Positions 20-23,305 of a stretch of DNA of 23,305 nt are shown piece after piece. The translations under genes were made by a program, and so were the position numbers. The notes under the pieces were generated by a model, which was not told where the DNA came from, ran no database searches, and worked only from the letters and a program-made list of their open reading frames with translations. The DNA comes from a virus. The stretch lies in the UHGV virus genome UHGV-0105868. One strand, given 5' to 3'. Numbering within the stretch: position 1 is the stretch's first letter; each line of letters starts with the position of its first letter.

Positions 20-586
20 TTGTACACAATTGCAGAGAGAGGAAATGACATGCGTCGCGCTAACGATCCGCAACGGCGAGAAAAAATTATCCAGGCCACG
101 CTGGAGGCGGTGAAACTTTACGGAATACATGCTGTTACGCACCGCAAAATTGCTACCCTTGCCGGGGTACCGTTGGGATCGATGACCTACTATTTTTCAG
201 GAATTGATGAGTTGTTACTGGAGGCGTTCAGCAGTTTTACTGAGATCATGTCCCGGCAATATCAGGCATTTTTTAGCGATGTTAGTGATGCTCCGGGCGC
301 ATGCCAGGCTATCACCGATATGATCTACAGCTCACAGGTTGCAACGCCGGATAACATGGAGCTGATGTACCAGCTCTACGCGCTGGCTAGCCGAAAACCG
401 CTATTAAAAACGGTAATGCAAAACTGGATGCAGCGCAGTCAGCAAACGCTCGAACAATGGTTTGAACCCGGAACCGCCCGCGCGCTTGATGCGTTTATTG
501 AGGGGATGACGCTGCATTTTGTCACCGACCGTAAGCCGCTATCGCGCGAGGAGATTTTGAGGATGGTTGAGAGGGTTGCAGGGTAG
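20..586 (+). CDS. TetR/AcrR-family transcriptional regulator (host flanking gene)
   Basis: 188-aa ORF with an N-terminal TetR-type helix-turn-helix (…[30 protein letters not shown]…). It lies outside the att repeats, so it is host DNA. An internal Met at codon 11 (MRRAND…) could be the real start. I could not assign a gene name from memory with confidence. Confidence 0.8.
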
Positions 587-4747: not shown

Positions 4748-4814
4748 CCAACTAATGAAATTAATGGCGTAAACCCGCCGGGCATCCCTTTATCTAAATT
4801 CAGGAGAATTGATT

Positions 4815-5048: not shown

Positions 5049-5275
5049 TGGCTGATGCAATGGATCTCGTACAGCAGCGCGTTGAAGAAGAACGCCAGCG
5101 CCATATCCGTGCTGCCCGTGCCAAAACGCCGGGCGTGTCCCGCGTGCTTTGCGTTGAGTGTGAAGCGCCAATTCCGCCAGCACGCCGTCGTGCCATACCG
5201 GGTGTGCAGCTTTGCATTACCTGTCAGGAAATCGCAGAGCTGAAAGGCAAACATTACAACGGAGGTGCTGTATGA
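5048..5275 (+). CDS. DksA/TraR-family C4 zinc-finger protein
   Basis: 75 aa with CVECEAPIP…-(17 aa)-…CITC, the four-Cys zinc finger typical of phage TraR-like proteins. Confidence 0.8.
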   Translation: MADAMDLVQQRVEEERQRHIRAARAKTPGVSRVLCVECEAPIPPARRRAIPGVQLCITCQEIAELKGKHYNGGAV

Positions 5276-6129
5276 GCACCATCCTGAAATGGGCGGGAAA
5301 TAAAACCGCCATAATGTCCGAACTGAAAAAGCATCTTCCTGCTGGCCCGCGACTGGTTGAACCTTTCGCGGGTTCCTGTGCAGTGATGATGGAGACGGAT
5401 TACCCCAGCTATCTTGTTGCGGATATTAATCCTGATTTAATCAACCTCTATAAAAAGGTTGCTGCTGATTGTGAGGCGTTTATATCTCGTGCCAGAGCTT
5501 TATTTGAGGACGCAAACAGGGAGGTGACTTATTACAACATAAGGTAGGAGTTTAATTACTCAACTGAAATTACTGATTTCATGAAAGCGGTATATTTCCT
5601 GTATCTCAATCGTCACGGTTACCGTGGGTTATGTCGTTATAACAAGAGCGGGCATTTCAACATTCCATACGGTAATTATAAAAATCCGTATTTCCCTGAA
5701 AAAGAAATTCGCGCATTTGCAGAGAAAGCCCAGCGAGCAACGTTTATCTGCGCCAGCTTTGATGAAACGCTGGCGATGCTGCAGGTGGGGGATGTGGTGT
5801 ATTGCGATCCGCCTTATGACGGTACGTTTTCCGGTTATCACACTGACGGCTTCACTGAAGATGACCAGTATCACCTGGCATCCGTTCTTGAACATCGGTC
5901 ATCAGAAGGACATCCGGTCATTGTTTCTAATAGTGACACATCCCTGATCCGTTCGCTGTATCGCAATTTCACTCACCACTACATCAAGGCAAAACGCAGC
6001 ATTGGCGTGTCAGCTGGCGAGAGTAAATCTGCAACAGAAATCATCGCTGTTTCTGGGGCGCGCTGCTGGGTGGGATTTGATCCTTCGCGTGGCGTGGATA
6101 GTTCTGCCGTGTACGGAGTGCGTGCATGA
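5272..6129 (+). pseudogene. dam: Dam-type N6-adenine DNA methyltransferase interrupted by an in-frame amber codon (TAG at 5545..5547)
   Basis: N-terminal part has …ILKWAGNK… and EPFAGS (motif I). C-terminal part has …[15 protein letters not shown]… and DPPY (motif IV). The two track ORFs (ending 5547, starting 5581) are in the same frame. Reading through the TAG gives [27 protein letters not shown], which aligns with E. coli Dam (…YYQFREEFNKSQDPFRRAVLFLYLNR…) with the stop at a Glu position. GGAGG RBS before 5272. Confidence 0.8.
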
Positions 6130-8540: not shown

Positions 8541-8632
8541 TTACGCGGGTTAACAATTCGTGCTCTTAATAATACCAGGCATATCAGGCTGATGAACGTA
8601 AAAAAACGTTTTACATCAGTAAGATTATTATA

Positions 8633-8652
8633 TACTGTAAATATAAACAGTG
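8633..8652 (+). promoter_or_regulatory. LexA (SOS) box TACTGTAAATATAAACAGTG overlapping a putative promoter
   Basis: CTGT-N8-ACAG with an AT-rich spacer, close to the consensus TACTGTATATATATACAGTA. Lies about 45 bp upstream of the 8694 start. Placement matches the LexA-controlled tum promoter of phage 186. Confidence 0.6.
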
Positions 8653-8693
8653 GTTATGTGTACAGTATTGCTTGTGGTGTCATAGGAGGAAAA

Positions 8694-8882
8694 ATGCAGG
8701 ACTATTTTTTGGAGTCTTTGAAGCTCCAGCGCATTGATTTTTTTCTTAAGCTTGTAGCGGCTAGTGAGTGTAGTGATGAAGAGAAGGGGCTGGCTCTGCA
8801 GTGGGTTTCTGAATTGACTGATGAACTCATGGCAAAAATCAGAAGCCACGAATACAACCGCTCAATGGATGTCATCAGCTGA
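8694..8882 (+). CDS. Small SOS-regulated protein (62 aa) at the tum antirepressor position
   Basis: ATG preceded by AGGAGG. Directly downstream of the LexA box. The protein itself is not recognised; the antirepressor role is inferred from position only. Confidence 0.45.
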   Translation: MQDYFLESLKLQRIDFFLKLVAASECSDEEKGLALQWVSELTDELMAKIRSHEYNRSMDVIS

Positions 8883-8892
8883 GGTGACTTTT

Positions 8893-9126
8893 ATGCGCAT
8901 TGAAATAATGATCGATAAAGAGCAGAAAATTAGCCAGTCTACCCTGGACGCCCTTGAATCCGAGCTTTACCGCAATCTGCGCCCCCTGTATCCCAAAACG
9001 GTAATTCGTATCCGCAAAGGTAGCTCTAACGGTGTGGAACTGACCGGACTGCAACTGGACGAAGAAAGAAAACAAGTGATGAAAATTATGCAGAAGGTGT
9101 GGGAAGACGACAGCTGGCTGCATTAA
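8893..9126 (+). CDS. DinI-like protein
   Basis: 77 aa, MRIEIMIDKEQKISQSTLDALESELYRNL…KVWEDDSWLH, resembling E. coli DinI (MRIEVTIAK…ALAGELSRR…ETWESADDWFVSE) in length and pattern. RBS GAGGTG. Confidence 0.75.
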   Translation: MRIEIMIDKEQKISQSTLDALESELYRNLRPLYPKTVIRIRKGSSNGVELTGLQLDEERKQVMKIMQKVWEDDSWLH

Positions 9127-9631
9127 GAAACGTTGCTGGCGTCTGAACTTGCTTCTGGCGTCAGCAAGGTTGAACAACGAGCTGTGCGAGGCGTTAGCCA
9201 TCTGATCAAAAGACATCAAATATCATATTGTATATCGTGGTTAAACGCTGGAAACAATCATTCCCGGTCAGAGGGGCTTCTTTCAATGTCCAAAAGAGTG
9301 AGATAGAGGATACAGGATGGGAAGAGCTTATGATGATTGTTCTTGGATTGACTTGGAATATTTGATGTCCATTATCTAATGGACTTGGTCTTGATAGTTA
9401 TCACGAAAGAGGAAGCCAACGTCATGTATTTGAAGAGTATCTCTTACCTTTTGATTAATTATTGTCCAAGTTTTTCAAAAGCTTCTTATCTGGCGGTCGA
9501 TACATGATTTACTGTTGGATATGGTATTTAAAATTAATCTTTACACTGTGGTATATGCAGAATAGGATATTATCAATACAATCAAACCGTTTTCATACGG
9601 TTGTTAATATTGCAATGTTATAGGTAATGTC

Positions 9632-10750
9632 ATGTATCTTTTCAAGTATTACCGTCCGGACTTCTTCTTCGAGAAAGCTATTCGTTATAATGAATTATAT
9701 TTTTCCGCTCCTGCGCAATTGAATGATCCTAATGATCTCAATATAGATTATCGTTTTGATAATAAATTGAAATTATGGGATATTTTATTGCGTTCTCCTT
9801 GCGATAAATCCTATGAAAATTTGAGTCACATATTAGATTTGAGTAATTTGAAGATACATAAGGGATTGAATCGTATTTTTAGAGGAAAAAAAATAAAAAG
9901 TAGCATTGAGTCATTAGATAGCCTGTTTGACTCACACGTTGATGAGATACGTAAGATCATAAATGATGGTTTACTACCTATCAATGTGATTAATTCCGCT
10001 ATTTATGGGAATATTCCTGAACCACGCCAATTTTTGGTCTCACTTTGCGAGAACAGTATCAAAGAAAGGTTGTATAGGAAAATAGTTCCTGCAGTATTCA
10101 GTGTGTCATTTTCAGCTAATGCGTTAGATCGTATGATGTGGGCGCATTATGCTGCAGGCTTTAGTGGTTGTGTTGTGATTTATGAAACGCAGGATTTTAA
10201 TATTAATGGCGTGCCACATCCTGGAATGAAGCTAAGAGAAAATTTATTTTCATCAGATAAATTTAATTTTCCAGTTAAGCAAATAAAATATAGTAATCAG
10301 GCTAAAGAGGTTTCACTTCTAGACCCAAGCGCAAATGTTGCAGAGTTATTTTTAACTAAAAATAGATTTTGGAGATATGAAGCTGAATATCGAATGTTTA
10401 TTCCAGAGGCAAATGCAGGAATAGGGAGTGAGCGGCATGTTCAAAGACGCGTAAATCGAAATATTGGACATATTTTTCATCATGATGCTAATGTTGTTAA
10501 AGGGATCATTTTTGGTCCTAGAATGTGTGAAATGAAAAAAGAAAGCATATGGAATTGTATCAAGTCAAATATGGAGAATTCAAATTCAACAATATGTTAT
10601 TTTTTTGACTCTGAGTTATCAGCATCAGGAAAGATTACTATTTCAAAAGGGCAACGAGCGGAAAAAATGAAAAATTTCCCTTTGTTCAGGAACAAGTTAA
10701 GTCAGACGGAAATGGCTAAAGTTTTGAAGGAAATTGGCATTACGAACTAA
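9632..10750 (+). CDS. AT-rich cargo protein (372 aa) with DUF2971-like N-terminal motif; candidate defence / abortive-infection gene
   Basis: Long ORF in a visibly AT-rich region, unlike the GC-richer phage backbone. N-terminus LFKYYRPDFFFEKAIRYNELYFSAPAQLNDPNDL and a later …SFSANALDRMMWAHYAAGFSGCVVIY… resemble the DUF2971 family signature as I remember it. Function unknown. Confidence 0.8.
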   Translation: MYLFKYYRPDFFFEKAIRYNELYFSAPAQLNDPNDLNIDYRFDNKLKLWDILLRSPCDKSYENLSHILDLSNLKIHKGLNRIFRGKKIKSSIESLDSLFDSHVDEIRKIINDGLLPINVINSAIYGNIPEPRQFLVSLCENSIKERLYRKIVPAVFSVSFSANALDRMMWAHYAAGFSGCVVIYETQDFNINGVPHPGMKLRENLFSSDKFNFPVKQIKYSNQAKEVSLLDPSANVAELFLTKNRFWRYEAEYRMFIPEANAGIGSERHVQRRVNRNIGHIFHHDANVVKGIIFGPRMCEMKKESIWNCIKSNMENSNSTICYFFDSELSASGKITISKGQRAEKMKNFPLFRNKLSQTEMAKVLKEIGITN

Positions 10751-10816
10751 CCTAACAACAGTGCATGCCTATGCTGCCTGAATTTGCATGACCGTTTGAG
10801 GATCGTTTTTGCTAAG

Positions 10817-10840
10817 GCCCGCCAGAACTGGCGGGCTTTT
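10817..10840 (+). terminator. Rho-independent terminator (gcccgcc-agaact-ggcgggc-TTTT)
   Basis: 7-bp GC stem, 6-nt loop and a T-run, 66 bp downstream of the 9632..10750 stop. Confidence 0.6.
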
Positions 10841-10885
10841 GCGTGGATCAGGCACCTGCATGAAAACCACTACACAAAGCGGGCA

Positions 10886-10904
10886 GGCGTGGCGGGGATA
10901 CGAG
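10886..10904. other. Candidate cos site (19-nt cohesive-end region GGCGTGGCGGGGATACGAG)
   Basis: The first 13 nt match the P2/186 cohesive-end sequences as I remember them (P2 GGCGAGGCGGGGAAAGCAC; 186 GGCGTGGCGGGGAAAGCAT). Sits in a short GC-rich block between the two AT-rich cargo genes, between gene A and the 3' end of Q, where cos lies in P2-like prophages. Confidence 0.4.
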
Positions 10905-11005
10905 CGCGCGCAACAGTGTAACAATCTGGATCTAATGTGATATAGTTACTGTAAATATTATTAATTATTCTTATATGCATTATTAAATATTTTAATGGAG
11001 CGTTT

Positions 11006-12679
11006 ATGGAAAAATATCAAGATGAGGAATATGTAGACGATTTAACTGAGCGTGTTTTTCTCATTAAGCAACAACTGGAAGCGGGAAAACTAAAAATAGC
11101 TCATCATCTTGTAGAAGGTTTTATTGAAAGTTTTAAAAGAATAAGGCTGCGACAGGATGGTAAAGTTGACCCTTCTACTGTTGATGGCAGAATAAGGGCT
11201 ATGGGAGCAGCGGTTAATCACTTTTTAGAAAGAGAAGATATAAAAAACAAATACTCTATTCAGGACTTGCAAAGTTCTTACTTTAATATTCTTTTTAGTA
11301 ATTTTGGCGAGTTGTTTTATCTGATGAAAAAAACTAATGCAACGCCACATAAAGCATCAAGTTTTTTTTCTCAACAAGAAGAATATGTTAAGCAAATAGA
11401 AGGTGTTTTTCCTGAGTTATATAATCAGGTAATAGAGTTTTGGCAGGTAACATCCGATATTGGTGTAATACATTTGCAGGATGGTTCTCAGTTTAAAGCT
11501 AATTTTTCTGGTGACTTATTTCCTGCATTTGATGAGAATGCTGTCTCTATTGCAGGGTTGTATGTTGATACTATTTCACTTCCATGTCCTATATTAAGAG
11601 TCGGTCGTCTCTATGAAAAGTCAGATAAGGCTGAGTTTACAAGGATACTTCTGAAGCATGTCCTAACATGTATGACATATAAAGAAGTAGCGCTTGAAGA
11701 TATAGAGCCAGCAATAGTATTAATTTTGCCGGATAGAAGAGATTTTGAAACTGAGAGCAAAAAAAATTTGATGAGTTTTTGTGAGCCTTATGCTCTGACT
11801 CATGCGCAATATCTCTATGATCGACGGTTCGAAAGCTACGATGAATTTCAAGATTTTAGTTATTCGATGAATGATATTGATGCTGTTCTTAAAAATATTA
11901 AGAGAGCAGATAGACTTATTTTTGATACAGCATGGGGGCTAAATCCAAAAACTCAATTAGAAAAACTACTATCTGATAAAAAAAGAATATCACGTAATGT
12001 TGTTGGTGATCATGCTGGAATGGAGGTTTTCCTTTCCTGCATTGGAAGAATGCCGCAAGCCTATTCAGCAAAATGTAATGCACAAGAACTTGGTAGTACT
12101 CCATATATAAATGCAGACACATCTTGGCTCTATTATACTTGGCTTATTGAGTACGAATCTCTTAATTTTGATGTCAATGATATTGAACTAAAAAATTTGC
12201 ATATGGTTCATGCGTTATCTGCTGGTATGCAAGATGGTTTTTCATGGTTAGGAAATGTACCGGTCAATAAAATAATTGAGTTGAGACGTAACAAATTGAT
12301 GGAGGATGTAAGATCCATCTTATCAAATGGTGTTGACTCTTTAATCAATTCTTCGGCAGAGAGCTTTTCGAGGACAACGCAAAAAGTAATTGATAATGTA
12401 GACCGGGCTTTTATTGAACATCAAAGGATTCTTGCAAAAGCCCAAAAAGAGAAATTGAGAATTTACGGACTGGATGTCCTACCATGTATCGCAAATGGTG
12501 CTATAGCAATTGCTGGAGCGCTGACTGGCAATACTACTTTAGCGGCGTTAAGTGCAGGCCTTGGAGTAATAGGTATTCCGAGTATTAGTGATATCAAATC
12601 TAAATTTAAGCAGAGGCAAGAGAAGCTTGATGCCTATCAACGTTCTGTTACAGGTATACTCTTTAGCCATAAATCTTAA
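11006..12679 (+). CDS. AT-rich cargo protein (557 aa), unknown function, C-terminal hydrophobic Gly/Ala-rich segment; candidate defence / abortive-infection effector
   Basis: Long AT-rich ORF with a GGAG RBS. No motif recognised in the mostly soluble-looking body. Near the C-terminus is a hydrophobic stretch, …LPCIANGAIAIAGALTGNTTLAALSAGLGVIGIPSI…, long enough for one or two membrane helices. Confidence 0.8.
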   Translation: MEKYQDEEYVDDLTERVFLIKQQLEAGKLKIAHHLVEGFIESFKRIRLRQDGKVDPSTVDGRIRAMGAAVNHFLEREDIKNKYSIQDLQSSYFNILFSNFGELFYLMKKTNATPHKASSFFSQQEEYVKQIEGVFPELYNQVIEFWQVTSDIGVIHLQDGSQFKANFSGDLFPAFDENAVSIAGLYVDTISLPCPILRVGRLYEKSDKAEFTRILLKHVLTCMTYKEVALEDIEPAIVLILPDRRDFETESKKNLMSFCEPYALTHAQYLYDRRFESYDEFQDFSYSMNDIDAVLKNIKRADRLIFDTAWGLNPKTQLEKLLSDKKRISRNVVGDHAGMEVFLSCIGRMPQAYSAKCNAQELGSTPYINADTSWLYYTWLIEYESLNFDVNDIELKNLHMVHALSAGMQDGFSWLGNVPVNKIIELRRNKLMEDVRSILSNGVDSLINSSAESFSRTTQKVIDNVDRAFIEHQRILAKAQKEKLRIYGLDVLPCIANGAIAIAGALTGNTTLAALSAGLGVIGIPSISDIKSKFKQRQEKLDAYQRSVTGILFSHKS

Positions 12680-12685
12680 TGTAGA

Positions 12686-12710
12686 GGGCCGAGGTATTCG
12701 GCCCTTAGTT
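12686..12710 (+). terminator. Rho-independent terminator (gggccga-ggtat-tcggccc then T-rich) between convergent genes
   Basis: 7-bp GC-rich stem and 5-nt loop followed by ttagtttta, immediately after the 557-aa ORF stop and before the Q stop. Confidence 0.55.
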
Positions 12711-13742
12711 TTATATGAAACTGTATGGCATGAATTTTATTATGTCATCTTTGAGCCATTTATTGAGTTCTTCTATTCTGTTTTGTAGCGGTATCAATTC
12801 ATTACGCATAAAAACCTTACTAGCCTTCTCCACATCCCCAAATCCCCCAACATTATTCGGTATTATCCCCATCATTTGCGGCGGCACTCGGTGTGCTGCC
12901 ATCATGTCATCCCGGCTCACGTTCTTGATATTCAAAAATTCATCCTTTGCCGCGACTTCTGACAGAGGAATAATCTGAAGCCCGTCCTTTTTGCCGTTAG
13001 GCGAGTACATAAACAGGTTGCGGAAGTTGCCAGGGCCTTTGGCGCTTTTCATCGCATTGCGGAGGTTGTTCACGTCCTCCTGGTTCTGCGCGGCATCGGT
13101 CATGTACATGATGAAGCCAGCATGACTGCCGTTAATGTAATACTTTCGGCGGAACAGCGTGGCGGACTCGTTGAGCAGGGCTGACGGAATGGCAGAAAGA
13201 TAACCGGGCAGGCCGTAGATCTCCTGGTTGATGTCCGGTTCCATCAGATGAAAGATGCTGCCTTTCGTGAACTGATATGGCTGCGTGGTCATACCGTATT
13301 GCACAAACCAGTAGGTATCCAGGTCTAACCCGCGTCGGGTGTATTTTGCCAGGGCAGGTTCAAGGGCGATAACTTCACCGAAGCGGTTCGTGCGTTTCTC
13401 CAGGTAGGCGTTACCAAATACCAGATAGTCCTGAACAAAACGCGAAAAAGCCTGCTGGCTGAGCAGCGGGTGAGGGATGTAGGTGCTGGTCAGAATGTTG
13501 CACTTTACTGCAATCGGGGAACTATGATGCACGGCAGCGCGGAAGGTGCGCGCCAGTCCGTCAAAGCTGACGGGCGGTTCATACCAGCGGTCCATCTGTA
13601 CGCATTCCACATAATCCAGCAGTTCTCGGCGGTCCAGAACAGGAACGGGATCGCCGAAGCTGAATGCTTCGGCTGTAGTTTGACTTTTAAGCTGGATCTG
13701 TTTCGTCGCCGCAGCGCGGTTCTTCTTACTCTTTCCCATCAA
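12711..13742 (-). CDS. Q: Portal protein (P2 gpQ-like)
   Basis: 343 aa at the P2 gene Q position and orientation (3' end toward cos, divergent from the head genes). Confidence 0.85.
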   Translation of the reverse strand: MMGKSKKNRAAATKQIQLKSQTTAEAFSFGDPVPVLDRRELLDYVECVQMDRWYEPPVSFDGLARTFRAAVHHSSPIAVKCNILTSTYIPHPLLSQQAFSRFVQDYLVFGNAYLEKRTNRFGEVIALEPALAKYTRRGLDLDTYWFVQYGMTTQPYQFTKGSIFHLMEPDINQEIYGLPGYLSAIPSALLNESATLFRRKYYINGSHAGFIMYMTDAAQNQEDVNNLRNAMKSAKGPGNFRNLFMYSPNGKKDGLQIIPLSEVAAKDEFLNIKNVSRDDMMAAHRVPPQMMGIIPNNVGGFGDVEKASKVFMRNELIPLQNRIEELNKWLKDDIIKFMPYSFI

Positions 13743-15343
13743 AAAATCTCCACAATATTGCTGGTATTGGCGGATTCGCCCTGCAGCGGTTCGTTAAACA
13801 GTGCGTGCATCGTTGCCCAGGCCAGATCGGCGTGGCTGGCTTCTTCGCTGCGGCTGGCTTCATAGGTCGGGCGGTTGCCACTGGCGGTGGTGGCGCGACG
13901 GATTGCCATAAAGGACTGCGCTATGTCGGTGTGTCCGGCGTCAAACTCCAGACGGCGGTGGCTGATAATGTCGTAGGCCTTGAGTACCAGGGCGTTTTTA
14001 ACGTTGGGGTTGTAGACAAACTCCCGGACGGCAGGAAAAAACGCTTTCACGTTCTCGTAAACCCCGTGACCAACGCCGGTTGAGTCGATACCGATATAGG
14101 TCACGTTGTACTGTTCGGTCAGTTTTTTGATGGCGTCAGCCTGGGCGCGGAAGTCCATCCCGCGCCACTGGTGACGCTCAAGAATGCGGAACTTACCACC
14201 CGGCACGGCTGGCGGTGCCACCACCACGCATCCGGCGCTGTCGCCGTTTTGCGTGCCTTTTGCCGGGTCATAACCGATCCACACTTCGCGCCAGCCAAAC
14301 GGGCGCAGCGCCAGTGCATGAAAGTCGGTCCAGACTTCCCAACTGTCCACCATGCACGCCTGCAGCTCGCTGAGCGGAAACACGGACGCGAGATCGTCCA
14401 CAAACTCGCACATCAGCAGGTTCTGGTATTCATCCGGGCTGTACTCCATGCGTAGCTGGTCGAGGTCGAACAGGTTACAGCCGCCGCGTACCGCATCTTC
14501 CACGGTGACTATCTGGCGGTATTGCCCGTCTGCGCACAGCAGGCCGGGGGCCAGATTGCTGTGGGACAGGTCGATGTCCACCTTATCGGCTTTGTTGCGC
14601 CCACGGTTGAACAGCGCACCGGACCAGAACGGATAAGCACTGTGTGTCAGACTGGATGGCGTGGAAAAATAGGTTTGTCGCCATTTTTTGTGAATAGCCA
14701 TACCGGAAGCCACTTTGCGCAGCTCCTGAAATTTCGGTATCCAGAAATATTCATCCAGATACAGGTTGCCGTGATAACTCTGGGCCGTGCGGGCATTGGT
14801 GCCGAGGAAATACAGTGTGGCCCCGTTGGGAAGCACCATCGGATCGCCTTTCAGCTCCACCTCTACTTCTTTGGCGAAGTCGATGATGTACTGTTTAAAG
14901 ACGTGGGCCTGTGCCTTACTGGCGGAAAGGAAAATCTGGTTACGTCCGGTAAGCAGGGCGTCAATCAGGGCTTCACGGGCAAAGTAAAAGGTCGCGCCGA
15001 TCTGGCGTGACTTCAGCAGGTTGCGGATGCGGTTGGTTTTTCCGGCTTCCCACCAGTGGCGCTGGTAGTTGAACATGGAGGAATGGAAAATTTCTTCCAG
15101 CTTCTCAATCTGTTCATCGGTGAAAACGTTCTTTTCCGGCTGACGGCGTGGGCCTTTGTTGCGGTTGGCGACGTTAGGGTTTAAGTCGGCTTCGTTGCCG
15201 CCATTGTTAAACTTGCCGATCCGCGCATGGCGCTCCGACTGGCGCGCCAGCAGGTCAATCTCTTTGAAATCTTTCCCTTCTTTGTGCTCCTTCATAATGA
15301 GCTGGCAGTAGCGTGCGGCGGTGGTGAGCTGCATCTGATCCAC
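13739..15343 (-). CDS. P: Terminase large subunit (P2 gpP-like ATPase/nuclease)
   Basis: 534 aa with a Walker-A-like …LLKSRQIGATFYFA… region. Start overlaps the Q stop. Start is GTG or a nearby ATG. Confidence 0.85.
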   Translation of the reverse strand: MDQMQLTTAARYCQLIMKEHKEGKDFKEIDLLARQSERHARIGKFNNGGNEADLNPNVANRNKGPRRQPEKNVFTDEQIEKLEEIFHSSMFNYQRHWWEAGKTNRIRNLLKSRQIGATFYFAREALIDALLTGRNQIFLSASKAQAHVFKQYIIDFAKEVEVELKGDPMVLPNGATLYFLGTNARTAQSYHGNLYLDEYFWIPKFQELRKVASGMAIHKKWRQTYFSTPSSLTHSAYPFWSGALFNRGRNKADKVDIDLSHSNLAPGLLCADGQYRQIVTVEDAVRGGCNLFDLDQLRMEYSPDEYQNLLMCEFVDDLASVFPLSELQACMVDSWEVWTDFHALALRPFGWREVWIGYDPAKGTQNGDSAGCVVVAPPAVPGGKFRILERHQWRGMDFRAQADAIKKLTEQYNVTYIGIDSTGVGHGVYENVKAFFPAVREFVYNPNVKNALVLKAYDIISHRRLEFDAGHTDIAQSFMAIRRATTASGNRPTYEASRSEEASHADLAWATMHALFNEPLQGESANTSNIVEIF

Positions 15344-15354
15344 TGGACCGCATC

Positions 15355-15987
15355 ATGATCGGCTTTAACGGCGTGAAGCGTGCGAAAACCTCCAACCGTA
15401 GCGAAAAACCGCTGCTGCAGGATGTGAACAAAGGCTGGCTGCAGAAAATCCGTGAAGATGCACCGGATCACGTCATGGGCAGCACCACCACGGGCGGTGA
15501 AACCACACCGGGAGCGGTGAAAGTCGGGAAAGGTGGCGAATATGCCAACCTGGACGCCGTGGTGATGGATGCCGTCAATGAGCTTATCGATGTGGTCTAC
15601 CAGGACGATGACGATCTGGTGGTGATTTGCGGTCGTGAACTGCTGTCTGACAAGTATTTCCCGCTGGTCAACAAAGAGCAGGAAAACAGTGAAAAACTGG
15701 CTGCCGATATGATCATCAGTCAGAAACGCATGGGTGGCCTGCAGGCCGTGCGTGCGCCGTTCTTCCCGCCGAATGCACTGCTGATCACCCGTCTGGATAA
15801 CCTGTCCATCTACTGGCAGGAAGACACCCGCCGCCGCTCAGTTATCGACAACCCGAAACGTGACCGGATTGAAAACTTTGAATCCGTTAACGAAGCCTAT
15901 GTGGTTGAGGACTACCGCTGCGCCGCACTGGTGGAAAACATCCAGATTGGCGACTTCAGCGCCGCAGCAGCAGAAACCGGAGCGTAA
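15355..15987 (+). pseudogene. N: Major capsid protein fragment (C-terminal ~210 aa of P2 gpN-like); scaffold gene O and capsid 5' region absent
   Basis: MIGFNGVKRAKTSNRSEKPLLQDVNKGWLQK…LITRLDNLSIYWQED… matches the C-terminal two-thirds of P2 gpN as I remember it (…IMAGFNGVKRAETSDRS…). It begins only 11 bp from the divergent P start, leaving no room for gene O or the N-terminal ~145 codons of N. Confidence 0.7.
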
Positions 15988-15990
15988 TTC

Positions 15991-16641
15991 ATGAGCCTGA
16001 GTCCCGCACGGCAGCATCGCCTGCGCGTTCAGGCTGAACAGGCCGCCCGCGAGGGCGGCAGCGTTCGCCACGCGTCGGGCTATGACCTGATGCTGCTGCA
16101 ACTGGCGGAAGACCGCCGCCGTCTCAAGGGCGTTCAGTCCACGGTCAAAAAAGCGGAAATCAAGGTGGAGCTGCTGCCGAAGTACGCCGCCTGGGCGGAG
16201 GGTGTCCTGGCTGCCGGAGGCGCTCAACAGGATGACGTGCTGATGTACGTGATGCTGTGGCGCATTGATGCCGGAGATTATGCCGGGGCGCTGGAGATCG
16301 GGCGTCACGCCCTGCGTCATGGCTGGGTGATGCCGTTAGGTAACCGCAACGTGCAGACCGTGCTGGCAGAGGAAATGGCAGATGCAGCCCAGAGCTCAAT
16401 GCTTGCCGCCACCGGCTTTGATGCCGATCTGTTGCTGCAGACCCTGGAGCTGACAGACGGTATGGATATGCCGGACCAGTCACGGGCGCGTCTGCATAAA
16501 GCGATTGGCGCTGTCCTGAGTGAAAGAAATCCGGCGTCTGCCCTTAATCATCTCAACCATGCGTTACAGCTCGATCCCCGCTGTGGCGTGAAAAAAGACA
16601 AACAGCAGCTGGAGCGCAGACTGCGCAATGACAGCCGCTGA
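15991..16641 (+). CDS. M: Terminase small (endonuclease) subunit, P2 gpM-like
   Basis: 216 aa; MSLSPARQHRLRVQAEQAAREGG…VLMYVMLWRIDAGDYAGALEIGRHAL… resembles P2 gpM. Confidence 0.8.
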   Translation: MSLSPARQHRLRVQAEQAAREGGSVRHASGYDLMLLQLAEDRRRLKGVQSTVKKAEIKVELLPKYAAWAEGVLAAGGAQQDDVLMYVMLWRIDAGDYAGALEIGRHALRHGWVMPLGNRNVQTVLAEEMADAAQSSMLAATGFDADLLLQTLELTDGMDMPDQSRARLHKAIGAVLSERNPASALNHLNHALQLDPRCGVKKDKQQLERRLRNDSR

Positions 16642-16736
16642 CAGAACGTGCCCCCGCGCACGGGCGGCACGGGGCGGCGAAAGGCACTGCCACATCAAAA
16701 CCCCGTCCACCGCCCTCTATTTCAGGAGAAAGCAGC

Positions 16737-17201
16737 ATGAAGTTTGTTGCGCCAGAACAGGCACCGGAACAGGCGGAAATCATCAGGAATACGCCGTTCT
16801 GGCCTGATGTGGACCTGTCGGAGTTTCGCAGTGTGATGCGCACTGACGGCACGGTGACGCAGCCGCGTTTAAAACAGGTTGCCCTGTCGGCAATTTCGGA
16901 GGTCAACGCAGAGCTGTATGAGTTTCGCAGACGCCAGCAGATGCTGGGGTATGCCTCGCTGGCAGAAGTCCCGGCGGAACAACTGGACGGCAAAAGCGAG
17001 CGCATTCAGCACTATTTCAACGCGGTTTATTGCTGGGCACGCGCCATGCTCAACGAACGTTACCAGGACTATGACGCCACGGCATCCGGTGCGAAGCGAG
17101 GCGAGGAACTGGCGGAAGCAAGCGGTGATTTATGGCGTGACGCCCGCTGGGCCATCAGCCGGGTGCAGGATGCGCCGCACTGCACAGTGGAGCTTATCTG
17201 A
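16737..17201 (+). CDS. L: Head completion/stabilisation protein (P2 gpL-like)
   Basis: 154 aa in the gene L position. AGGAG RBS. Confidence 0.8.
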   Translation: MKFVAPEQAPEQAEIIRNTPFWPDVDLSEFRSVMRTDGTVTQPRLKQVALSAISEVNAELYEFRRRQQMLGYASLAEVPAEQLDGKSERIQHYFNAVYCWARAMLNERYQDYDATASGAKRGEELAEASGDLWRDARWAISRVQDAPHCTVELI

Positions 17202-17404
17202 TGAAAGTGCGTGCGCATCAGTATGACACGGTGGACGCACTTTGCTGGCGTCATTACGGGCGCACGCAGGGTGTCACGGAGCAGGTACTGAAGGCAAATC
17301 CGGGGCTTGCCGAATACGGCCCCTTTTTACCTCACGGGCTGCAGGTGGAGCTGCCGGACATTCCGACAACCACCACCGTGCAGACCGTCCAGCTATGGGA
17401 CTGA
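17201..17404 (+). CDS. X: Tail protein X (P2 gpX-like)
   Basis: 67 aa, the same length as P2 gpX, in the gene X position. Confidence 0.8.
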   Translation: MKVRAHQYDTVDALCWRHYGRTQGVTEQVLKANPGLAEYGPFLPHGLQVELPDIPTTTTVQTVQLWD

Positions 17405-17407
17405 ATT

Positions 17408-17623
17408 ATGACGCTTGAGCGAATCAGCGCCTTTATCACGTATTGCATCGCCGTCGTGCTGGCCTGGCTGGGCGATTTGTCCATCAAGGATGCCTCAACG
17501 CTGGGCGGCCTGATGATCGGTGTGCTGATGCTGGCTATCAACTGGTACTACAAACACAAAGCCTACCAGCTTCTGCGCGACGGGCAGATCTCGCGGGAGG
17601 ACTATGAATCCATCAATCGTTAA
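17408..17623 (+). CDS. Holin
   Basis: 71 aa with two hydrophobic helices (…ISAFITYCIAVVLAWLG… and …LGGLMIGVLMLAINWYY…) and a charged C-terminus. Immediately upstream of the lysozyme gene. Confidence 0.7.
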   Translation: MTLERISAFITYCIAVVLAWLGDLSIKDASTLGGLMIGVLMLAINWYYKHKAYQLLRDGQISREDYESINR

Positions 17624-18116
17624 ACGCTGCCTTGTCGGGGCCGTGCTGGCTATTGCTGCCACGCTGCCGGGGTTTCAGCAGCTTCACACCTCCGAGGAGG
17701 GACTGAAACTGATCGCCGATTATGAAGGCTGTCGTCTGCAGCCGTATCAGTGCAGCGCGGGTGTCTGGACCGACGGCATTGGTAATACGTCGGGCGTCAT
17801 TCCCGGCAAAATTATTACGGAACGACAGGCAGCTGAAGGGCTGATCTCCAACGTGCTACGAGTGGAGCGGGCGCTGGAAAGGTGTGTGAAGCAACAGCCG
17901 CCGCAGAAGGTGTATGACGCTACGGTGTCGTTTGCCTTCAACGTGGGGACGGGCAATGCCTGTAGTTCCACGCTGGTGAAATTGCTCAATCAGCGGCGCT
18001 GGGCGGATGCATGCCGACAGTTGCCGCGCTGGGTTTATGTGAAAGGTGTTTTTAATCAGGGGCTGGATAACCGCCGTGCGCGGGAGATGGCCTGGTGTTT
18101 ACAGGGAGCAAACTGA
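17604..18116 (+). CDS. Endolysin (lysozyme), probably a signal-anchor-release (SAR) type
   Basis: 170 aa. N-terminus has a weakly hydrophobic Gly/Ala-rich segment (CLVGAVLAIAATLPG). Then …DYEGCRLQPYQCSAGVWTDGIGNT…, a Glu-x8-Cys/Asp-x5-Thr lysozyme catalytic pattern. Confidence 0.8.
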   Translation: MNPSIVKRCLVGAVLAIAATLPGFQQLHTSEEGLKLIADYEGCRLQPYQCSAGVWTDGIGNTSGVIPGKIITERQAAEGLISNVLRVERALERCVKQQPPQKVYDATVSFAFNVGTGNACSSTLVKLLNQRRWADACRQLPRWVYVKGVFNQGLDNRRAREMAWCLQGAN

Positions 18117-18117
18117 A

Positions 18118-18495
18118 ATGAAAAAGAAATTAATCAGCGGACTGTTTCTGATGTTATGGATGGCGCTGTTAATCGCAGCAATGGTGTATCCGCAGGGGAT
18201 TTTTCCGGTACTGGCAGCGTCCGGCGTTTGGGTAGCCTGTTTGCTGACATGGGCGGTAATTCCGGTAGCACTGGCTGCGTTAATTAAGAATGGCCCGCTC
18301 TGGCAGGAGTTAAGGGCATCTTTGCTGAAGACAATTACCCGAAAAGAAAACGTATTTACCAGTTGGGTGATGCGATTGCTGATTGTTGTAAGTCTCGCCT
18401 GGACGGGGTGGGCTATTACCCTGGTCTTTTATCTACTGACCGTTATTGCCTTCTGGATCACCCGTAATCAGATGGCGCAACAGGTAGCAGCATGA
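18118..18495 (+). CDS. LysA-like lysis-timing membrane protein
   Basis: 125 aa from MKKKLISGLFLMLWMALLIAAMVY…, with about four hydrophobic helices. In the P2 lysA position. Confidence 0.65.
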   Translation: MKKKLISGLFLMLWMALLIAAMVYPQGIFPVLAASGVWVACLLTWAVIPVALAALIKNGPLWQELRASLLKTITRKENVFTSWVMRLLIVVSLAWTGWAITLVFYLLTVIAFWITRNQMAQQVAA

Positions 18496-18926
18496 ACCGG
18501 TTGCTGCTGGTTGTGCTGACGTTATTACTGGCGGCGCTGGGCTGGCAGACGTGGCGGCTGGCTGATGCCAGCCAGACCATCAGCATGCAGGCAGACGAGC
18601 TGCAGAGCAAAAGCCAGGCACTGGCAAAGAGCAATAGCCAGCTTATCAGCCTGTCCATTCTGACTGAAACCAATAACCGGGAGCAGGCGCGGCTCTATGC
18701 CGAAGCAGAACAGACCAGCACGCTGCTGAGACAACGACAACACCGGATCGAGGAACTGAAACGTGAGAACGAGGATTCGCAGCGCAGAAATCATCCCGTA
18801 TCGCGTGGAAGCCACCATTTTTCTCTATCCTGGACCGGAAGCAGAGCCGGTAATGGCAGCGGCAAAAGCCAGCCTGCAGAAGTACATCGCCAGTCAGACG
18901 CGTCTTGGTCGGGATATTCGCCGTAG
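18492..18926 (+). CDS. LysB-like i-spanin, apparently 3'-truncated and running out-of-frame into a gene J remnant
   Basis: N-terminal membrane anchor MNRLLLVVLTLLLAALGW followed by a coiled-coil-like Q/E/R-rich region. The last ~40 codons overlap the J-fragment frame and look non-native. No Rz1/LysC-like ORF seen. Confidence 0.5.
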   Translation: MNRLLLVVLTLLLAALGWQTWRLADASQTISMQADELQSKSQALAKSNSQLISLSILTETNNREQARLYAEAEQTSTLLRQRQHRIEELKRENEDSQRRNHPVSRGSHHFSLSWTGSRAGNGSGKSQPAEVHRQSDASWSGYSP

Positions 18927-19065
18927 CGCCATCTTTGCCGCCCTGCATGTTGAGGGGGTGCAGCGTGTGGAGCTGGCTTCTCCTCAGGCGGATGTGGTCC
19001 TGAACAAAACACAGGCGGCATCATGTACGCAGTGGAGCGTAACCAACGGAGGAACGGATGAATAG
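18799..19065 (+). pseudogene. J: Baseplate protein J, C-terminal fragment only
   Basis: About 90 aa in-frame with and immediately upstream of gene I, overlapping its start. Far shorter than an intact baseplate J (about 300 aa). R, S, V, W and the 5' part of J are absent between the lysis genes and this point. Identification is from gene order and size. Confidence 0.45.
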
Positions 19066-19663
19066 TCTGCTGCCACCGGGTTCAACACCACTGGAGCGCC
19101 GACTGGCGCAAACCTGCAGCGGGATTTCTGATCTGCAGGTGCCGCTTCGTGACTTGTGGAATCCGGCAACCTGTCCGGTCAGTTTCCTGCCTTATCTCGC
19201 CTGGGCGTTCTCTGTGGATCGCTGGGACGAGGGCTGGACAGAAAGCGTCAAGCGCCAGGTGGTGAAGGATGCTTTTTATATTCATCAGCATAAAGGGACC
19301 ACCAGTGCCGTGCGGCGGGTGGTGGAGCCGTTCGGATTCCTGATCCGCATTATTGAGTGGTGGCAGACCGGAGAAACACCGGGCACGTTTCGCCTGGATA
19401 TCGGCGTGCAGGACCAGGGCATCACTGAAGATACCTATCTGGAACTTGAGCGACTGATAAGCGATGCCAAACCATGTAGCCGCCACATGATCGGCATGTC
19501 CATCAATCTGCAGACCAGCGGCCCGCATTGGGTGGGAGCCGCCAGCTATCTTGGCGAAGAAATCACGATCTATCCGTATATCAACGAAACGATTATTTCC
19601 GGTGGCACCGCGCATGAAGGCGGGGCGGTCCATGTTATTGACACAATGAGAGTGAATCCATGA
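19058..19663 (+). CDS. I: Baseplate/tail protein I (P2 gpI-like)
   Basis: 201 aa; …LLPPGSTPLERRLAQTCSGI…LWNPATCPVSFLPYLAWAFSVDRWDEGW… closely resembles P2 gpI as I remember it. Confidence 0.85.
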   Translation: MNSLLPPGSTPLERRLAQTCSGISDLQVPLRDLWNPATCPVSFLPYLAWAFSVDRWDEGWTESVKRQVVKDAFYIHQHKGTTSAVRRVVEPFGFLIRIIEWWQTGETPGTFRLDIGVQDQGITEDTYLELERLISDAKPCSRHMIGMSINLQTSGPHWVGAASYLGEEITIYPYINETIISGGTAHEGGAVHVIDTMRVNP

Positions 19664-21144
19664 GCACAAAATTTTATACCCTGCTGACGGATATTGGCGC
19701 GGCGAAACTTGCCAGCGCCGCCGCGCTCGGTGTGCCGCTAAAAATTACCCATATGGCGGTGGGCGATGGCGGTGGAGTATTGCCAACGCCGGACGCAAAG
19801 CAGACGGCACTGGTAAATGAGAAACGCCGGGCTGCACTGAATATGCTTTATATCGACCCGCAGAACAGCAGCCAGATTATTGCCGAACAGGTGATCCCTG
19901 AAAACGAGGGCGGTTGGTGGATACGTGAAGTGGGCTTGTTTGATGAGTCCGGGGCATTGATTGCCGTGGGCAACTGCCCGGAAAGCTATAAGCCGCAACT
20001 GGCTGAAGGTAGCGGGCGCACTCAGACCGTGCGCATGGTGCTGATTACCAGCAGCACGGACAATATCACCCTGAAAATCGACCCTGCTGTAGTGCTGGCA
20101 ACCCGCAAGTATGTGGATGACAAGGCACTGGAGCTGAAGGTGTACGCGGATGATCAGATGGCAAAACATCTTGCCGCACCGGACCCGCATTCACAGTACG
20201 CGCCAAAAGCCAGCCCGACATTTACCGGAATCCCCAAAGCGCCAACGCCAGCGGCGGGGAATAATACCACGCAGGTTGCGACCACTGCGTTTGTACAGGC
20301 GGCACTGACGGCCCTTATTAATGGTGCGCCAGCCACGCTGGACACGCTGAAAGAAATAGCCGCAGCCATTAACAATGATCCGAATTTCAGTACCACCATT
20401 AACAATGCGCTGGCACTAAAAGCACCGTTGTCGAGTCCGGCACTCACCGGAACGCCAACAGCCCCCACGGCGGCGCAGTCGGTCAACAATACACAGATTG
20501 CCACTACGGCTTTTGTGAAATCGGCGATTGCAGGAATGGTGGGTTCTGCACCTGCTGCACTGGATACACTGAACGAACTGGCGGCGGCACTGGGGAATGA
20601 TCCGAACTTTGCCACGACAATGCTTAATGCGTTGGCAGGTAAACAACCGCTGGACAATACGCTTACCAATTTGAGTGGAAAGGATGTAGCTGGTCTTCTC
20701 ACATACCTTCAATTGGGAGAAGCGGCAAAACGGGATGTCGGAACCGGTAATAATCAACTCCCGGACATGTCCGCATTTGGTATGTCGCGAAACGGACAAA
20801 CTGCCTGGGATATTCTCCCAAATGGTATGATTCGACAGGCTGGCACTGTGACACTGACACCAGTTGGTAACTTCAACTCGCAGGTGCTTGGTGGGGTGAC
20901 GTACTACACCCATTACTACAGGGTTAATTTCCCCAGACAATTCCCAAATGCACAAATAGCAACGCTGGCAACACTAGCGAGTTACAGCTATTCGACCCAG
21001 GCAACAATGGCCGGAAAATCACTGGCAACGCATCGCGATACTGATTCTGGCACTGACGTATCAAGAACGCGATTCACTGTGGCGTATACGACACCCAATC
21101 TCGGCGAAACACCGACACTGCATTTTGAAGCAATAGGATACTAA
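19660..21144 (+). CDS. H: Tail fibre protein (P2 gpH-like) with a divergent C-terminal receptor-binding region
   Basis: 494 aa. The N-terminal two-thirds carry conserved fibre motifs (MAVGDGGG, ESYKPQLAEGSGRTQT, repeated …PTFTG.P.APT…NNTQ(V/I)ATTAFV…, LNELAAALGNDPNFATTM). The C-terminal ~150 aa are different and end …EAIGY. Confidence 0.85.
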   Translation: MSTKFYTLLTDIGAAKLASAAALGVPLKITHMAVGDGGGVLPTPDAKQTALVNEKRRAALNMLYIDPQNSSQIIAEQVIPENEGGWWIREVGLFDESGALIAVGNCPESYKPQLAEGSGRTQTVRMVLITSSTDNITLKIDPAVVLATRKYVDDKALELKVYADDQMAKHLAAPDPHSQYAPKASPTFTGIPKAPTPAAGNNTTQVATTAFVQAALTALINGAPATLDTLKEIAAAINNDPNFSTTINNALALKAPLSSPALTGTPTAPTAAQSVNNTQIATTAFVKSAIAGMVGSAPAALDTLNELAAALGNDPNFATTMLNALAGKQPLDNTLTNLSGKDVAGLLTYLQLGEAAKRDVGTGNNQLPDMSAFGMSRNGQTAWDILPNGMIRQAGTVTLTPVGNFNSQVLGGVTYYTHYYRVNFPRQFPNAQIATLATLASYSYSTQATMAGKSLATHRDTDSGTDVSRTRFTVAYTTPNLGETPTLHFEAIGY

Positions 21145-21146
21145 AT

Positions 21147-21380
21147 ATGGAGAATATCTATTTCAGCCCAACGACCGTTGGTTTTTATGTTTCTGAACAA
21201 GAGCGACCTGATGATGCGGTTGAAGTCTCGCCAGAGGTGGAGGCATTTTTGAGGGAGTGTGTTATCTGGGGAGCGGATACATTTAACGTAGAGCGAGATG
21301 CAGCAACGGTGACATATCCAACAGAACTGCTTGAATATGTCACCACCTACAACGCCCCCGTTAAATATCCTGCGGATTGA
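21147..21380 (+). CDS. Small ORF (77 aa) in the tail-fibre-assembly position; possibly a truncated Tfa N-terminal domain
   Basis: Immediately follows H. Lacks the conserved Tfa C-terminal motif. Ends where the convergent minus-strand Tfa gene ends. Confidence 0.35.
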   Translation: MENIYFSPTTVGFYVSEQERPDDAVEVSPEVEAFLRECVIWGADTFNVERDAATVTYPTELLEYVTTYNAPVKYPAD

Positions 21381-21771
21381 CAGGCCATACGGGTTTTGCT
21401 GTATCAACGCGCATCAGCAGGACCCGGTATTTTTTCCATTCAGATAACGCGGCGGTTTCTTCTGCCGTCGCGATTTCCGCATCAAAAGCATCCTGTCTCC
21501 AGACTATTTCCTTATCAGCCATAGAACGCAATACCGTTCTTTTCTGTTCAGCCTGAATAATCTGTTGTTCAGCGGAGAGTGGCGGGATATCAATCCACGC
21601 AGGATTACCATTTTTATCAGCCCCCAGCGTTTTGCCTTGTGGCGCTACGCCTGTGTAAATTGCCATTGTTTCATCATCAACATCAACGCCATTTTCAGGC
21701 CATGAACCGGCGCTGATATATACCTCTTTTAGTGCTTTCGGATAGAAAGAGCCTTTATAAAATTTATTCAT
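21361..21771 (-). CDS. Tail fibre assembly chaperone (Tfa), inverted relative to H
   Basis: 137 aa from MNKFYKGSFYPK…, with the C-terminal Tfa signature …EIATAEETAALSEWKKYRVLLMRVDTAKPVWPVNPQDI, which compares with lambda Tfa and P2 gpG C-termini. Encoded on the strand opposite to H. Confidence 0.7.
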   Translation of the reverse strand: MNKFYKGSFYPKALKEVYISAGSWPENGVDVDDETMAIYTGVAPQGKTLGADKNGNPAWIDIPPLSAEQQIIQAEQKRTVLRSMADKEIVWRQDAFDAEIATAEETAALSEWKKYRVLLMRVDTAKPVWPVNPQDI

Positions 21772-21773
21772 TC

Positions 21774-22200
21774 TTAATACCCCAGCGCGATAAAACAACA
21801 ATCTTCGGTGCCCTCTCCGGATGGCGACCAGTTCTGAATACTGATATGCGTTCTGCTGGCAATACGCACATTCATCGCGGCATTGTAGCCAGATGTTCCA
21901 CGGTTTCCGGTCGCAAATAAGCCTGCATAGGGAAAAGCAAATGGTAAGGCATATCCAGCATCAGCTCCCTTTTGTGTTGCCACCGTTCCCCACTGCAACA
22001 TAAGTTTCACCGGGTTTCCTGTCGTCGCAATGCATGGAATGTAGATGTAGCCATTCCCTGACATCATTGACCTGAAGCTGTCTAAATCCAGTAACTTCGA
22101 GGCATTATCTGCTCCAACATCTCGTGTTGCGGCGGTCCCTAACTGGAGCGCATTTCGGAAGGCTGATACATCAGAAATATCAGCTCCATTACCCGCCGTG
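21774..22200 (-). pseudogene. Alternative tail-fibre C-terminal (receptor-binding) domain fragment on the opposite strand
   Basis: The minus-strand ORF encodes …FFTAGNGADISDVSAFRNALQLGTAATRDVGADNASKLLDLDSF…FIALGY, which parallels the H C-terminal region (…YLQLGEAAKRDVGTGNNQLPDMSAF…EAIGY). There is no constant N-terminal part. The track ORF's first ~35 codons are antisense to the D fragment. Confidence 0.6.
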
Positions 22201-22232
22201 AAAAATCGTGGCACAAGACCACCGTCGGGGAA

Positions 22233-22946
22233 GTGGTGAAGGAAATAGCCGCGCGGCACAAGCTGAAGATGGCACTGGGTAAAGACCTGTCGGATAAGCC
22301 CGTTGAGCATATAGACCAGACTAATGAGAGTGACGGCAGTTTTCTGATGCGGCTGGCGCGACAGTACGGTGCCATCGCGTCGGTGAAAAATGGCAATCTG
22401 TTATTCATCCGGCAGGGGCAGGGCAAAAGCGCCACTGGTAAACCTCTGCCAGTGATCACTATCACACGCAAGGACGGCGACAGTCACCGATTTACCCTGG
22501 CAGATCGCGGAGCCTACACGGGCGTAATTGCCAGCTGGTTGCATACCCGCGAACCTGCGAAGAAAGAAAGCACCACGGTGAAGCGTAAGCGCAGAACTAA
22601 GAAGCAGAAGAAAGAGCCGGAAGCGAAGCAGGGCGATTACCTGGTGGGTACGGATGAAAACGTGCTGGTACTTAATCGCACTTATGCCAACCGGAGCAAC
22701 GCTGAACGGGCAGCGAAAATGCAGTGGGAACGCCTGCAACGCGGCGTTGCGTCATTCTCGCTACAACTGGCGGAAGGGCGGGCAGATCTTTACACGGAAA
22801 TGCCAGTGAAAGTTAGTGGCTTTAAACAACCGATAGATGATGCGGAATGGACCATTACGACTCTGACTCATACCGTCAGCCCGGATAATGGTTTTACGAC
22901 CAGTCTGGAGCTTGAAGTGAGGATTGATGATTTCGAAATGGAATGA
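22233..22946 (+). pseudogene. D: Tail protein D fragment (C-terminal ~235 aa of P2 gpD-like); 5' half and upstream sheath/tube/tape-measure genes absent
   Basis: …AARHKLKMALGKDLS…HIDQTNESDGSFLMRLARQYGAIASVKNGNLLFIRQGQGKS…VKVSGFKQPIDDAEWTITTLTHTVSPDNGFTTSLELEV… resembles the C-terminal half of P2 gpD as I remember it. It begins about 30 bp from the inverted fibre fragment. FI, FII, E, T and U are not in the window. Confidence 0.65.
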
Positions 22947-23036
22947 TTCTTCGCAATGGAGAACTTTTAAGTTTGCAAAATGGAATAATGCGGTATCATT
23001 ATTGTGAATTTAGCAAAAATGGGGAGAACTCGAAAA

Positions 23037-23255
23037 ATGATGATTTGCCCACTGTGTGGAAGTGCCGCCCATACTCGCAGCAGTTTTCAGGTATCTTCAT
23101 TGACCAAAGAACGTTACAACCAGTGCCAGAACATTAACTGCAGCCATACTTTTGTTACCCATGAAACTTTTGTTCGTTCGATTGCAACGCCAAAAGAGTC
23201 AAATCCGGTTCAGCCGCATCCAATGAAATCAGGACAGGTGGAGCTCTCTCTTTGA
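23037..23255 (+). CDS. ogr: Ogr/Delta-type zinc-finger late-gene transcription activator
   Basis: 72 aa (the same length as P2 Ogr) from MMICPLCGSAAHTRSSF…KERYNQCQNINCSHTFVTHE…PHP…, matching the Ogr pattern CPLC…ERYHQCQNVNCS…. Immediately followed by attR. Confidence 0.85.
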   Translation: MMICPLCGSAAHTRSSFQVSSLTKERYNQCQNINCSHTFVTHETFVRSIATPKESNPVQPHPMKSGQVELSL

Positions 23256-23277
23256 CGCTGCCGCCATTTTGTCGCCA
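23256..23277. repeat. attR core (cgctgccgccaTtttgtcgcca)
   Basis: Imperfect direct repeat of 709..730, placed right after ogr as in P2-type prophages. Confidence 0.6.
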
Positions 23278-23305
23278 TCGTTAAAAAACAGTGCTTCTAA
23301 CATCA

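Follow-up and report, generated by a model that had tools for sequence, protein, structure and literature searches.

Scar of a 2,719-bp deletion joining lysB to baseplate gene J in a defective P2-like prophage of Escherichia coli

Within the window (the whole 23,305-nt stretch of DNA analyzed here), a truncated lysB gene meets a remnant of baseplate gene J at positions 18776 to 18778. We conclude, with a probability of about 95%, that this site marks where one illegitimate deletion removed 2,719 bp from a P2/186-like prophage, a case of ordinary prophage decay with no sign of homologous recombination. One deletion (D2, flanked in the prophage by two others, D1 and D3) would have joined lysB codon 95 to J codon 208, taking with it the 3′ third of lysB, lysC bar five codons, the tail-completion genes R and S, the P_V region, the spike and baseplate genes V and W, and the first two-thirds of J. 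With the o-spanin lost and the i-spanin deprived of its C-terminal periplasmic part, outer-membrane disruption would fail. Baseplate and tail completion would be impossible after D2, and the additional losses in D1 and D3 would leave the prophage defective, lasting as a cryptic element inherited vertically in one E. coli lineage.

Extent and breakpoints of the lysB-J deletion

The window is filled by a P2/186-like (Peduoviridae) prophage of E. coli situated between rcdA and ybjL (open reading frame [ORF] listing; Pfam, NCBIfam, and PHROG scans). E. coli chromosome forms the left flank, where the integrase adjoins host rcdA. Gene order in the left part is rcdA, integrase, CI repressor, CII, Fil, dam methylase, and replication gene A, followed in the middle by a DinI-like gene, two cargo genes, and then portal Q and terminase P (minus strand). 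The late part holds a capsid fragment, M, L, X, holin, endolysin, LysA, the LysB-like ORF, the short J-like ORF, I, and H, and the right end consists of a tail fiber shufflon remnant, a D fragment, and ogr. Coordinates are given in Table 1.

Intact versions of the same prophage occupy the same site in E. coli p10A (NZ_CP049081.1; locus L008, hereafter the twin) and EC13 (NZ_CP060928.1). By BLAST, the window aligned to the twin in four colinear blocks (1-15342, 15341-18777, 18776-22195, and 22190-23305), each 99.97 to 100% identical, with only three single nucleotide polymorphisms (SNPs) within them; alignment to EC13 gave the same block picture. The three interruptions relative to p10A correspond to deletions of 1,569 bp (D1; 15342/15343), 2,719 bp (D2; 18777/18778), and 6,911 bp (D3; near 22195/22196). 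The p10A and EC13 prophages and Escherichia phage 500465-1 (Peduoviridae, Wadgaonvirus) share their integration site and gene order with the window, and phage 500465-1 is 93.5 to 99.5% identical to it in the late region. The sister prophages keep full lysB, lysC, R, S, V, W, and J, whereas the window lacks 1,569, 2,719, and 6,911 bp in three blocks. Alignment to phage 500465-1 (NC_049342.1) placed its positions 11612..15046 on window 15343..18777 and 17764..19710 on window 18776..20722. When positions 17400-20400 were compared with phage genomes by megablast, all matches began at query position 1377, which is window position 18776.

At D2, window sequence up to 18777 corresponds to the twin up to L008 20346, in lysB, and sequence from 18778 onward corresponds to L008 23066 onward, in J; the absent interval is L008 20347..23065. 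The left parent reads ...GAACGAGGATT up to the breakpoint and TACGCC beyond it, the right parent reads ...CTTACGGTT and then CGCAGCGC, and the window reads ...GAACGAGGATTCGCAGCGC, with an overlap of two bases, TT. Within ±100 nt of the D2 ends, the longest direct repeat was a 9-mer, GTGAGAACG, which is out of register and of which about 0.15 would be expected by chance, and no in-register repeat that could account for the breakpoints was found. A 2-nt overlap accompanied only by an out-of-register, chance-level 9-mer, with no long in-register direct repeat, is characteristic of RecA-independent illegitimate recombination, for example by slippage or microhomology end-joining, and D2 would have arisen in this way. 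The junctions of D1 (2-nt overlap) and D3 (a few nucleotides) resemble that of D2.

D2 took the last 47 codons of lysB, everything after codon 5 of lysC, the whole of R, S, V, and W, codons 1 to 207 of J, and the S-V intergenic region with the P_V late-promoter dyad. Searches of the whole window by tblastn with the twin's proteins gave no match for O, LysC, R, S, V, W, invertase, FI, FII, E, T, or U and partial matches for LysB (residues 1-98, the last three by chance), J (204-302), N (139-352), and D (116-366). The initial annotation, made from the letters of this stretch, had proposed a second deletion junction at 18780-18810 with R, S, V, and W missing between the lysis cassette and gene I. 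Colinearity with 500465-1, EC13, and p10A does break here, at the second of three deletions, and the four genes are indeed gone, but the breakpoint lies 2 to 3 nt to the left of that interval, which is wholly J derived. Alignment of the lysB-J interval with intact relatives, which the annotation had proposed as a check, left J codons 208 to 302 and found the 2,719 bp absent.

TABLE 1 Features of the window and of the corresponding region in the intact p10A prophage (locus L008)
Feature	Sequence	Position	Strand	State or evidence
rcdA (host)	Window	20..586		
dam methylase gene	Window	5272..6129		
Cargo gene, DUF2971 protein	Window	9632..10750		
Cargo gene, 557 aa	Window	11006..12679		
Capsid fragment ORF, 210 aa	Window	15355..15987		
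Holin (P2 gene Y equivalent)	Window	17408..17623	+	Intact; Pfam Phage_holin_2_3, E 4.3e-09; block with single SNP vs p10A (18422, in lysA)
Endolysin (P2 gene K equivalent)	Window	17604..18116	+	Intact; Pfam Phage_lysozyme, E 1.4e-39
LysA-like lysis-timing membrane protein	Window	18118..18495	+	Full length; NCBIfam NF038378, 122 bits, 1-124/124; PHROG 162; SNP at 18422 vs p10A
lysB′, truncated i-spanin gene	Window	18492..18926	+	Codons 1-95 native (18492..18776), then 49 codons of J DNA out of frame to chance stop
Antisense 97-aa ORF	Window	18525..18818	-	Spurious
Chimeric ORF LysC(1-5)::J(208-302)	Window	18763..19065	+	lysC GTG start; signal peptide and lipobox lost
Deletion junction D2	Window	18776..18777		TT common to lysB side and J side; three-way alignments of window and both flanks, BLAST blocks
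Gene I (baseplate/tail protein)	Window	19058..19663	+	Intact; Pfam Tail_P2_I, E 7e-55; 100% identical to twin I (tblastn)
Gene H (tail fiber)	Window	19660..21144	+	Intact; Pfam Phage_tail_fib N-terminal domain, E 4e-65
Tail fiber shufflon	Window	21147..22310		
D fragment	Window	22233..22946		Truncated
ogr	Window	23004..23255		Intact
lysB	p10A (L008)	20061..20489		
lysC (PGAP/RefSeq)	p10A (L008)	20374..20622		
R	p10A (L008)	20585..21016		
S	p10A (L008)	21009..21455		
V	p10A (L008)	21524..22102		
W	p10A (L008)	22099..22458		
J	p10A (L008)	22445..23353		

Remains of the spanin genes and of gene J

A two-component spanin bridges the periplasm by means of one subunit in the inner membrane and a lipoprotein in the outer membrane, P2 LysB/LysC being the paradigm pair (PMC6139136); in lambda, both subunits are essential for disruption of the outer membrane (PMC5295617). 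The lysB′ product begins MNRLLLVVLTLLLAALGWQTW, keeps an N-terminal hydrophobic membrane anchor as read from its sequence, and differs from the twin in its N terminus only at residue 10. Against TIGR03495 it scored 84.2 bits over profile positions 1-94 of 135, below the curated equivalog cutoff of 92.75 bits, compared with 171.5 bits over positions 1-134 for the intact LysB of the twin. Comparison of the two translations corrected the initial estimate of about 100 native codons to 95, while the proposal that truncated lysB is joined out of frame to a J remnant held, the 49 J codons being read in the wrong frame as far as 18926.

An ORF in the +1 frame of the twin's lysB starts at GTG 20332 (window position 18763) and encodes MRTRIYAAGLILLCLLTLSGC..., a lipoprotein signal peptide with a lipobox; the resulting 96-aa LysC matches NF038368 (P2_Rz1; E 7e-36). 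The PGAP/RefSeq start of the twin's lysC lies 14 codons downstream of this GTG, so that the signal peptide loses its n-region and most of its hydrophobic core; only the GTG start, which yields 96 aa with the lipobox LSGC, gives a canonical signal peptide. Of the signal peptide, lipobox cysteine, and periplasmic domain that define an o-spanin LysC, none is left in the window, where the start codon and four further codons remain; tblastn was negative. An embedded o-spanin had been suggested as something to look for. None was found either by tblastn with the twin's LysC or by a scan of both strands of 17300-19700 for a replacement lipobox ORF (basic N terminus, hydrophobic stretch, and lipobox), a scan that recovered LysC in the twin as a positive control. 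Neither an intact LysB/LysC pair nor a full-length J, which would have spoken against the original annotation, turned up.

The first 95 residues of lysB′ make it a clear relative of LysB from the overlapped LysB/LysC spanin of P2 (Kongari et al. 2018, PMC6139136), and the lysC start is placed within lysB in the +1 frame, the arrangement known from P2-type phages. Unlike the P2 pair, however, the window has neither the C-terminal third of LysB nor LysC past residue 5, and the predicted products could not span the periplasm. With LysC gone and the distal third of LysB missing, disruption of the outer membrane, which is the spanin step in lysis, would almost certainly be unable to occur; the earlier expectation of a probably nonfunctional spanin module is thereby strengthened, as judged from the reading frames.

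Although out of frame with lysB, the J remnant shares the reading frame of lysC. A chimeric ORF therefore begins with the first five lysC codons (MRTRI) and continues with the 95 terminal codons of J; this is the short ORF in another frame directly upstream of gene I that had been pointed out at the start. The lysC Shine-Dalgarno sequence GAGGA (18750-18754) survives ahead of the GTG at 18763, and the ORF runs to the native J stop, so that it shares 8 nt with gene I, the same overlap that J has in intact phages. Its only domain matches were to Baseplate_J (Pfam; positions 200-254 of 255) and the baseplate family PHROG 4226 (132-228 of 228). Full-length J (302 aa in the twin; PF04865 Baseplate_J and PF26079 Baseplate_J_C) is represented by residues 208-302 only. 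Because the chance prior for an in-frame outcome is one in three, the in-frame fusion carries no significance. A 100-aa fusion product would be possible if the region is transcribed at all.

Late promoters and the other deletions

The four late promoters of P2 (P_P, P_O, P_V, and P_F) share the consensus TGT-N12-ACA (PMC3931495). Dyads of this form are present in the twin at L008 15494, 15552, 21460, and 27214, in the P-O, S-V, and invertase-FI intergenic regions. All four of these fall inside D1 to D3, while ogr itself is intact. The window keeps only two TGT-N12-ACA matches, both due to chance, one in host DNA and one inside a gene. Because all four Ogr-type dyads lie in the three deletions, the surviving M-L-X-holin-endolysin-lysA-lysB′-′J-I-H block is probably not expressed. 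A consensus scan for plus-strand sigma-70-like sites in 15000-22972 found none, although read-through or weak promoters would escape such a scan.

We simulated three random, nonoverlapping deletions of the observed sizes. All four dyads were removed in ∼2% of trials when the deletions were placed across the whole prophage and in ∼12% when they were placed in the late region only. With a simulated P of ∼0.02 to 0.12, we make no claim of selection, and the loss of all four late-promoter dyads is at most suggestive of something beyond chance.

With D1, terminase gene P has lost its 5′ end and capsid gene N its first 138 codons, and the divergent P_P/P_O late-promoter region and scaffold gene O are gone. 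D3 (∼22191-22196) leaves D without its first 115 codons and eliminates the DNA invertase, P_F, sheath FI, tube FII, E/E′, tape-measure T, and U; with the invertase lost, the tail fiber shufflon is locked in one orientation. No virion would be able to form without R, S, V, W, and most of J and without the capsid, scaffold, sheath, tube, and tape-measure, which D1 and D3 took away. Virion-essential genes are thus missing relative to the intact same-site alleles in p10A and EC13, which places the element among defective (cryptic) P2-like prophages, and the carrier would be expected to have lost inducibility and virion production.

Compared with p10A, the prophage gene for DNA adenine methylase carries a C-to-T change at window position 5545 that turns codon 92 into a premature stop (Q92*). 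The same split dam gene is present in L003, a 96.6-kb ENA scaffold that is 100% identical to window 5355-23305; a second contig, L004, has an intact 285-aa product. The DinI-like gene and the portal gene flank the two cargo genes. One encodes a DUF2971 protein that matches the PADLOC candidate defense family PDC-S31 (E 3e-23); the other encodes a protein that has no Pfam family and resembles DitB only weakly (E 3e-10). The two genes may represent anti-phage cargo favoring retention of the remnant.

Occurrence of the junction and alternative explanations

The identical 35-nt D2 junction was present in four independently fetched contigs (L003 to L006). By exact-protein look-up, the capsid remnant was found on 17 contigs, and the antisense 97-aa ORF, which is specific to D2 because it spans the junction, on 18 ENA and Logan contigs from at least seven samples. 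Carrier samples include ERZ28579185, ERZ27266564, ERZ27255664, ERZ1303713, SRR15102853, DRR828582, and ERR1430566 among others. Exact-protein look-ups of the lysB′ and LysC::J ORFs returned no record because gene callers had not called them. On the ENA and Logan contigs, the callers instead placed the spurious antisense ORF across D2 and a 70-aa Baseplate_J_C ORF starting from ATG 18853, leaving lysB′ and the GTG-initiated fusion uncalled; the antisense ORF is a handy exact-match marker of D2. Among 5,426 complete E. coli genomes, none spanned the D1, D2, or D3 junction. The D2 junction 35-mer and 22-mer were absent from GTDB representative genomes, and the 22-mer was absent from JGI metagenome contigs. 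The absence from complete genomes indicates that the carrier lineage is uncommon or poorly represented among finished genomes. That the contigs are nearly identical points to one event inherited by descent.

That no complete RefSeq E. coli genome, GTDB representative, or JGI metagenome contig carries the junction might suggest an assembly or chimeric-contig artifact concealing an intact lysB-J interval. However, the same junction was recovered from SPAdes-style NODE contigs, MEGAHIT-style k141 contigs, a named scaffold, and Logan contigs under ERZ, SRR, ERR, and DRR accessions, and there is no end repeat on which an assembler could have collapsed, making an artifact extremely unlikely. Because the junction-bearing contigs come from different assemblers and submitters, we conclude that the junction is natural and inherited. 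The reverse polarity, in which the window would represent the ancestral state and intact phages would have gained R-S-V-W-J by insertion, has a probability close to nil: formally, insertions and deletions are symmetrical, but the window holds cut pieces of lysB and J whose missing parts in the twins match full-length family profiles, and R, S, V, W, and J belong to the core gene set of the annotated P2-like phages that were retrieved. We rejected that polarity on the truncated reading frames. It is also very unlikely that the LysC(1-5)::J(208-302) fusion is a functional new gene, yielding for example a cytoplasmic J C-terminal domain made with I, H, and the fiber chaperone. The retained Shine-Dalgarno sequence and GTG, the maintained frame, the native J stop overlapping I, and the intact I and H would suit such a gene. 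Against this, an in-frame join has a prior of one in three, no late promoter is left upstream, the ORF is not called by gene callers, and with V, W, the N-terminal two-thirds of J, the sheath, tube, and tape-measure absent, there is nothing onto which the product could assemble.

The remaining alternatives accept the deletions but question their neutrality. The three deletions could have been kept by selection since they jointly remove every Ogr-dependent late promoter, disarming a lethal lysis and morphogenesis program while immunity, replication, and candidate defense cargo are retained; the lysB-J junction, as part of that whole scenario, would then be one step of domestication. In keeping with this, four of the four intergenic TGT-N12-ACA dyads of the twin lie inside the deletions, the early region, repressor, integrase, Ogr, and cargo (DUF2971/PDC-S31 and DitB-like) have intact reading frames, no intermediate with one or two junctions occurs among the 5,426 complete genomes, and one member of the lineage has further lost its holin and endolysin. 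Yet the simulated frequencies (∼2% and ∼12%) do not make the pattern compelling, neutral decay predicts the same outcome, and the dam nonsense mutation fits general decay, so we regard selection as unlikely. A similarly small chance attaches to the broader proposition that D1 to D3 were not independent neutral events and instead arose either in a single burst (e.g., during repair of several breaks after abortive induction) or as a selected series removing all Ogr-dependent late promoters. If the deletions were not independent, lysis and morphogenesis would have been silenced with immunity, replication, and defense cargo kept, and the lysC-start::J fusion would be an incidental by-product.

The P2 remnant of E. 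coli K-12, which retains ogrK and a fragment of gpD, is similar to the right end of the window, where truncated D is followed by ogr. Cryptic or “grounded” prophages of E. coli have been reviewed (PMC6379469), and reduction by internal deletions is common to those elements and the one described here. Unlike those remnants, decay in the window is very recent, with 3 SNPs relative to an intact twin in colinear blocks and most of the genome present. A defective P2-like prophage with a deletion scar is a well-known kind of object and not a new system; given the near-identical intact twin, the locus is a clean, datable example of very recent multistep prophage decay. For annotation, the region is best labeled as lysB and J pseudogene fragments in a defective prophage, and the antisense 97-aa ORF over the junction should be dropped. 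Counts of inducible phages or of working spanins should leave the element out, and the junction 35-mer can serve as a specific marker for the carrier E. coli lineage.

Decay in this lineage is continuing. Two Logan contigs from SRR15102853 (L005 and L010) have a fourth deletion of ∼1.48 kb with 7-nt microhomology, equivalent to window 16514..17994, which takes the 3′ end of M together with L, X, the holin gene, and most of the endolysin gene.
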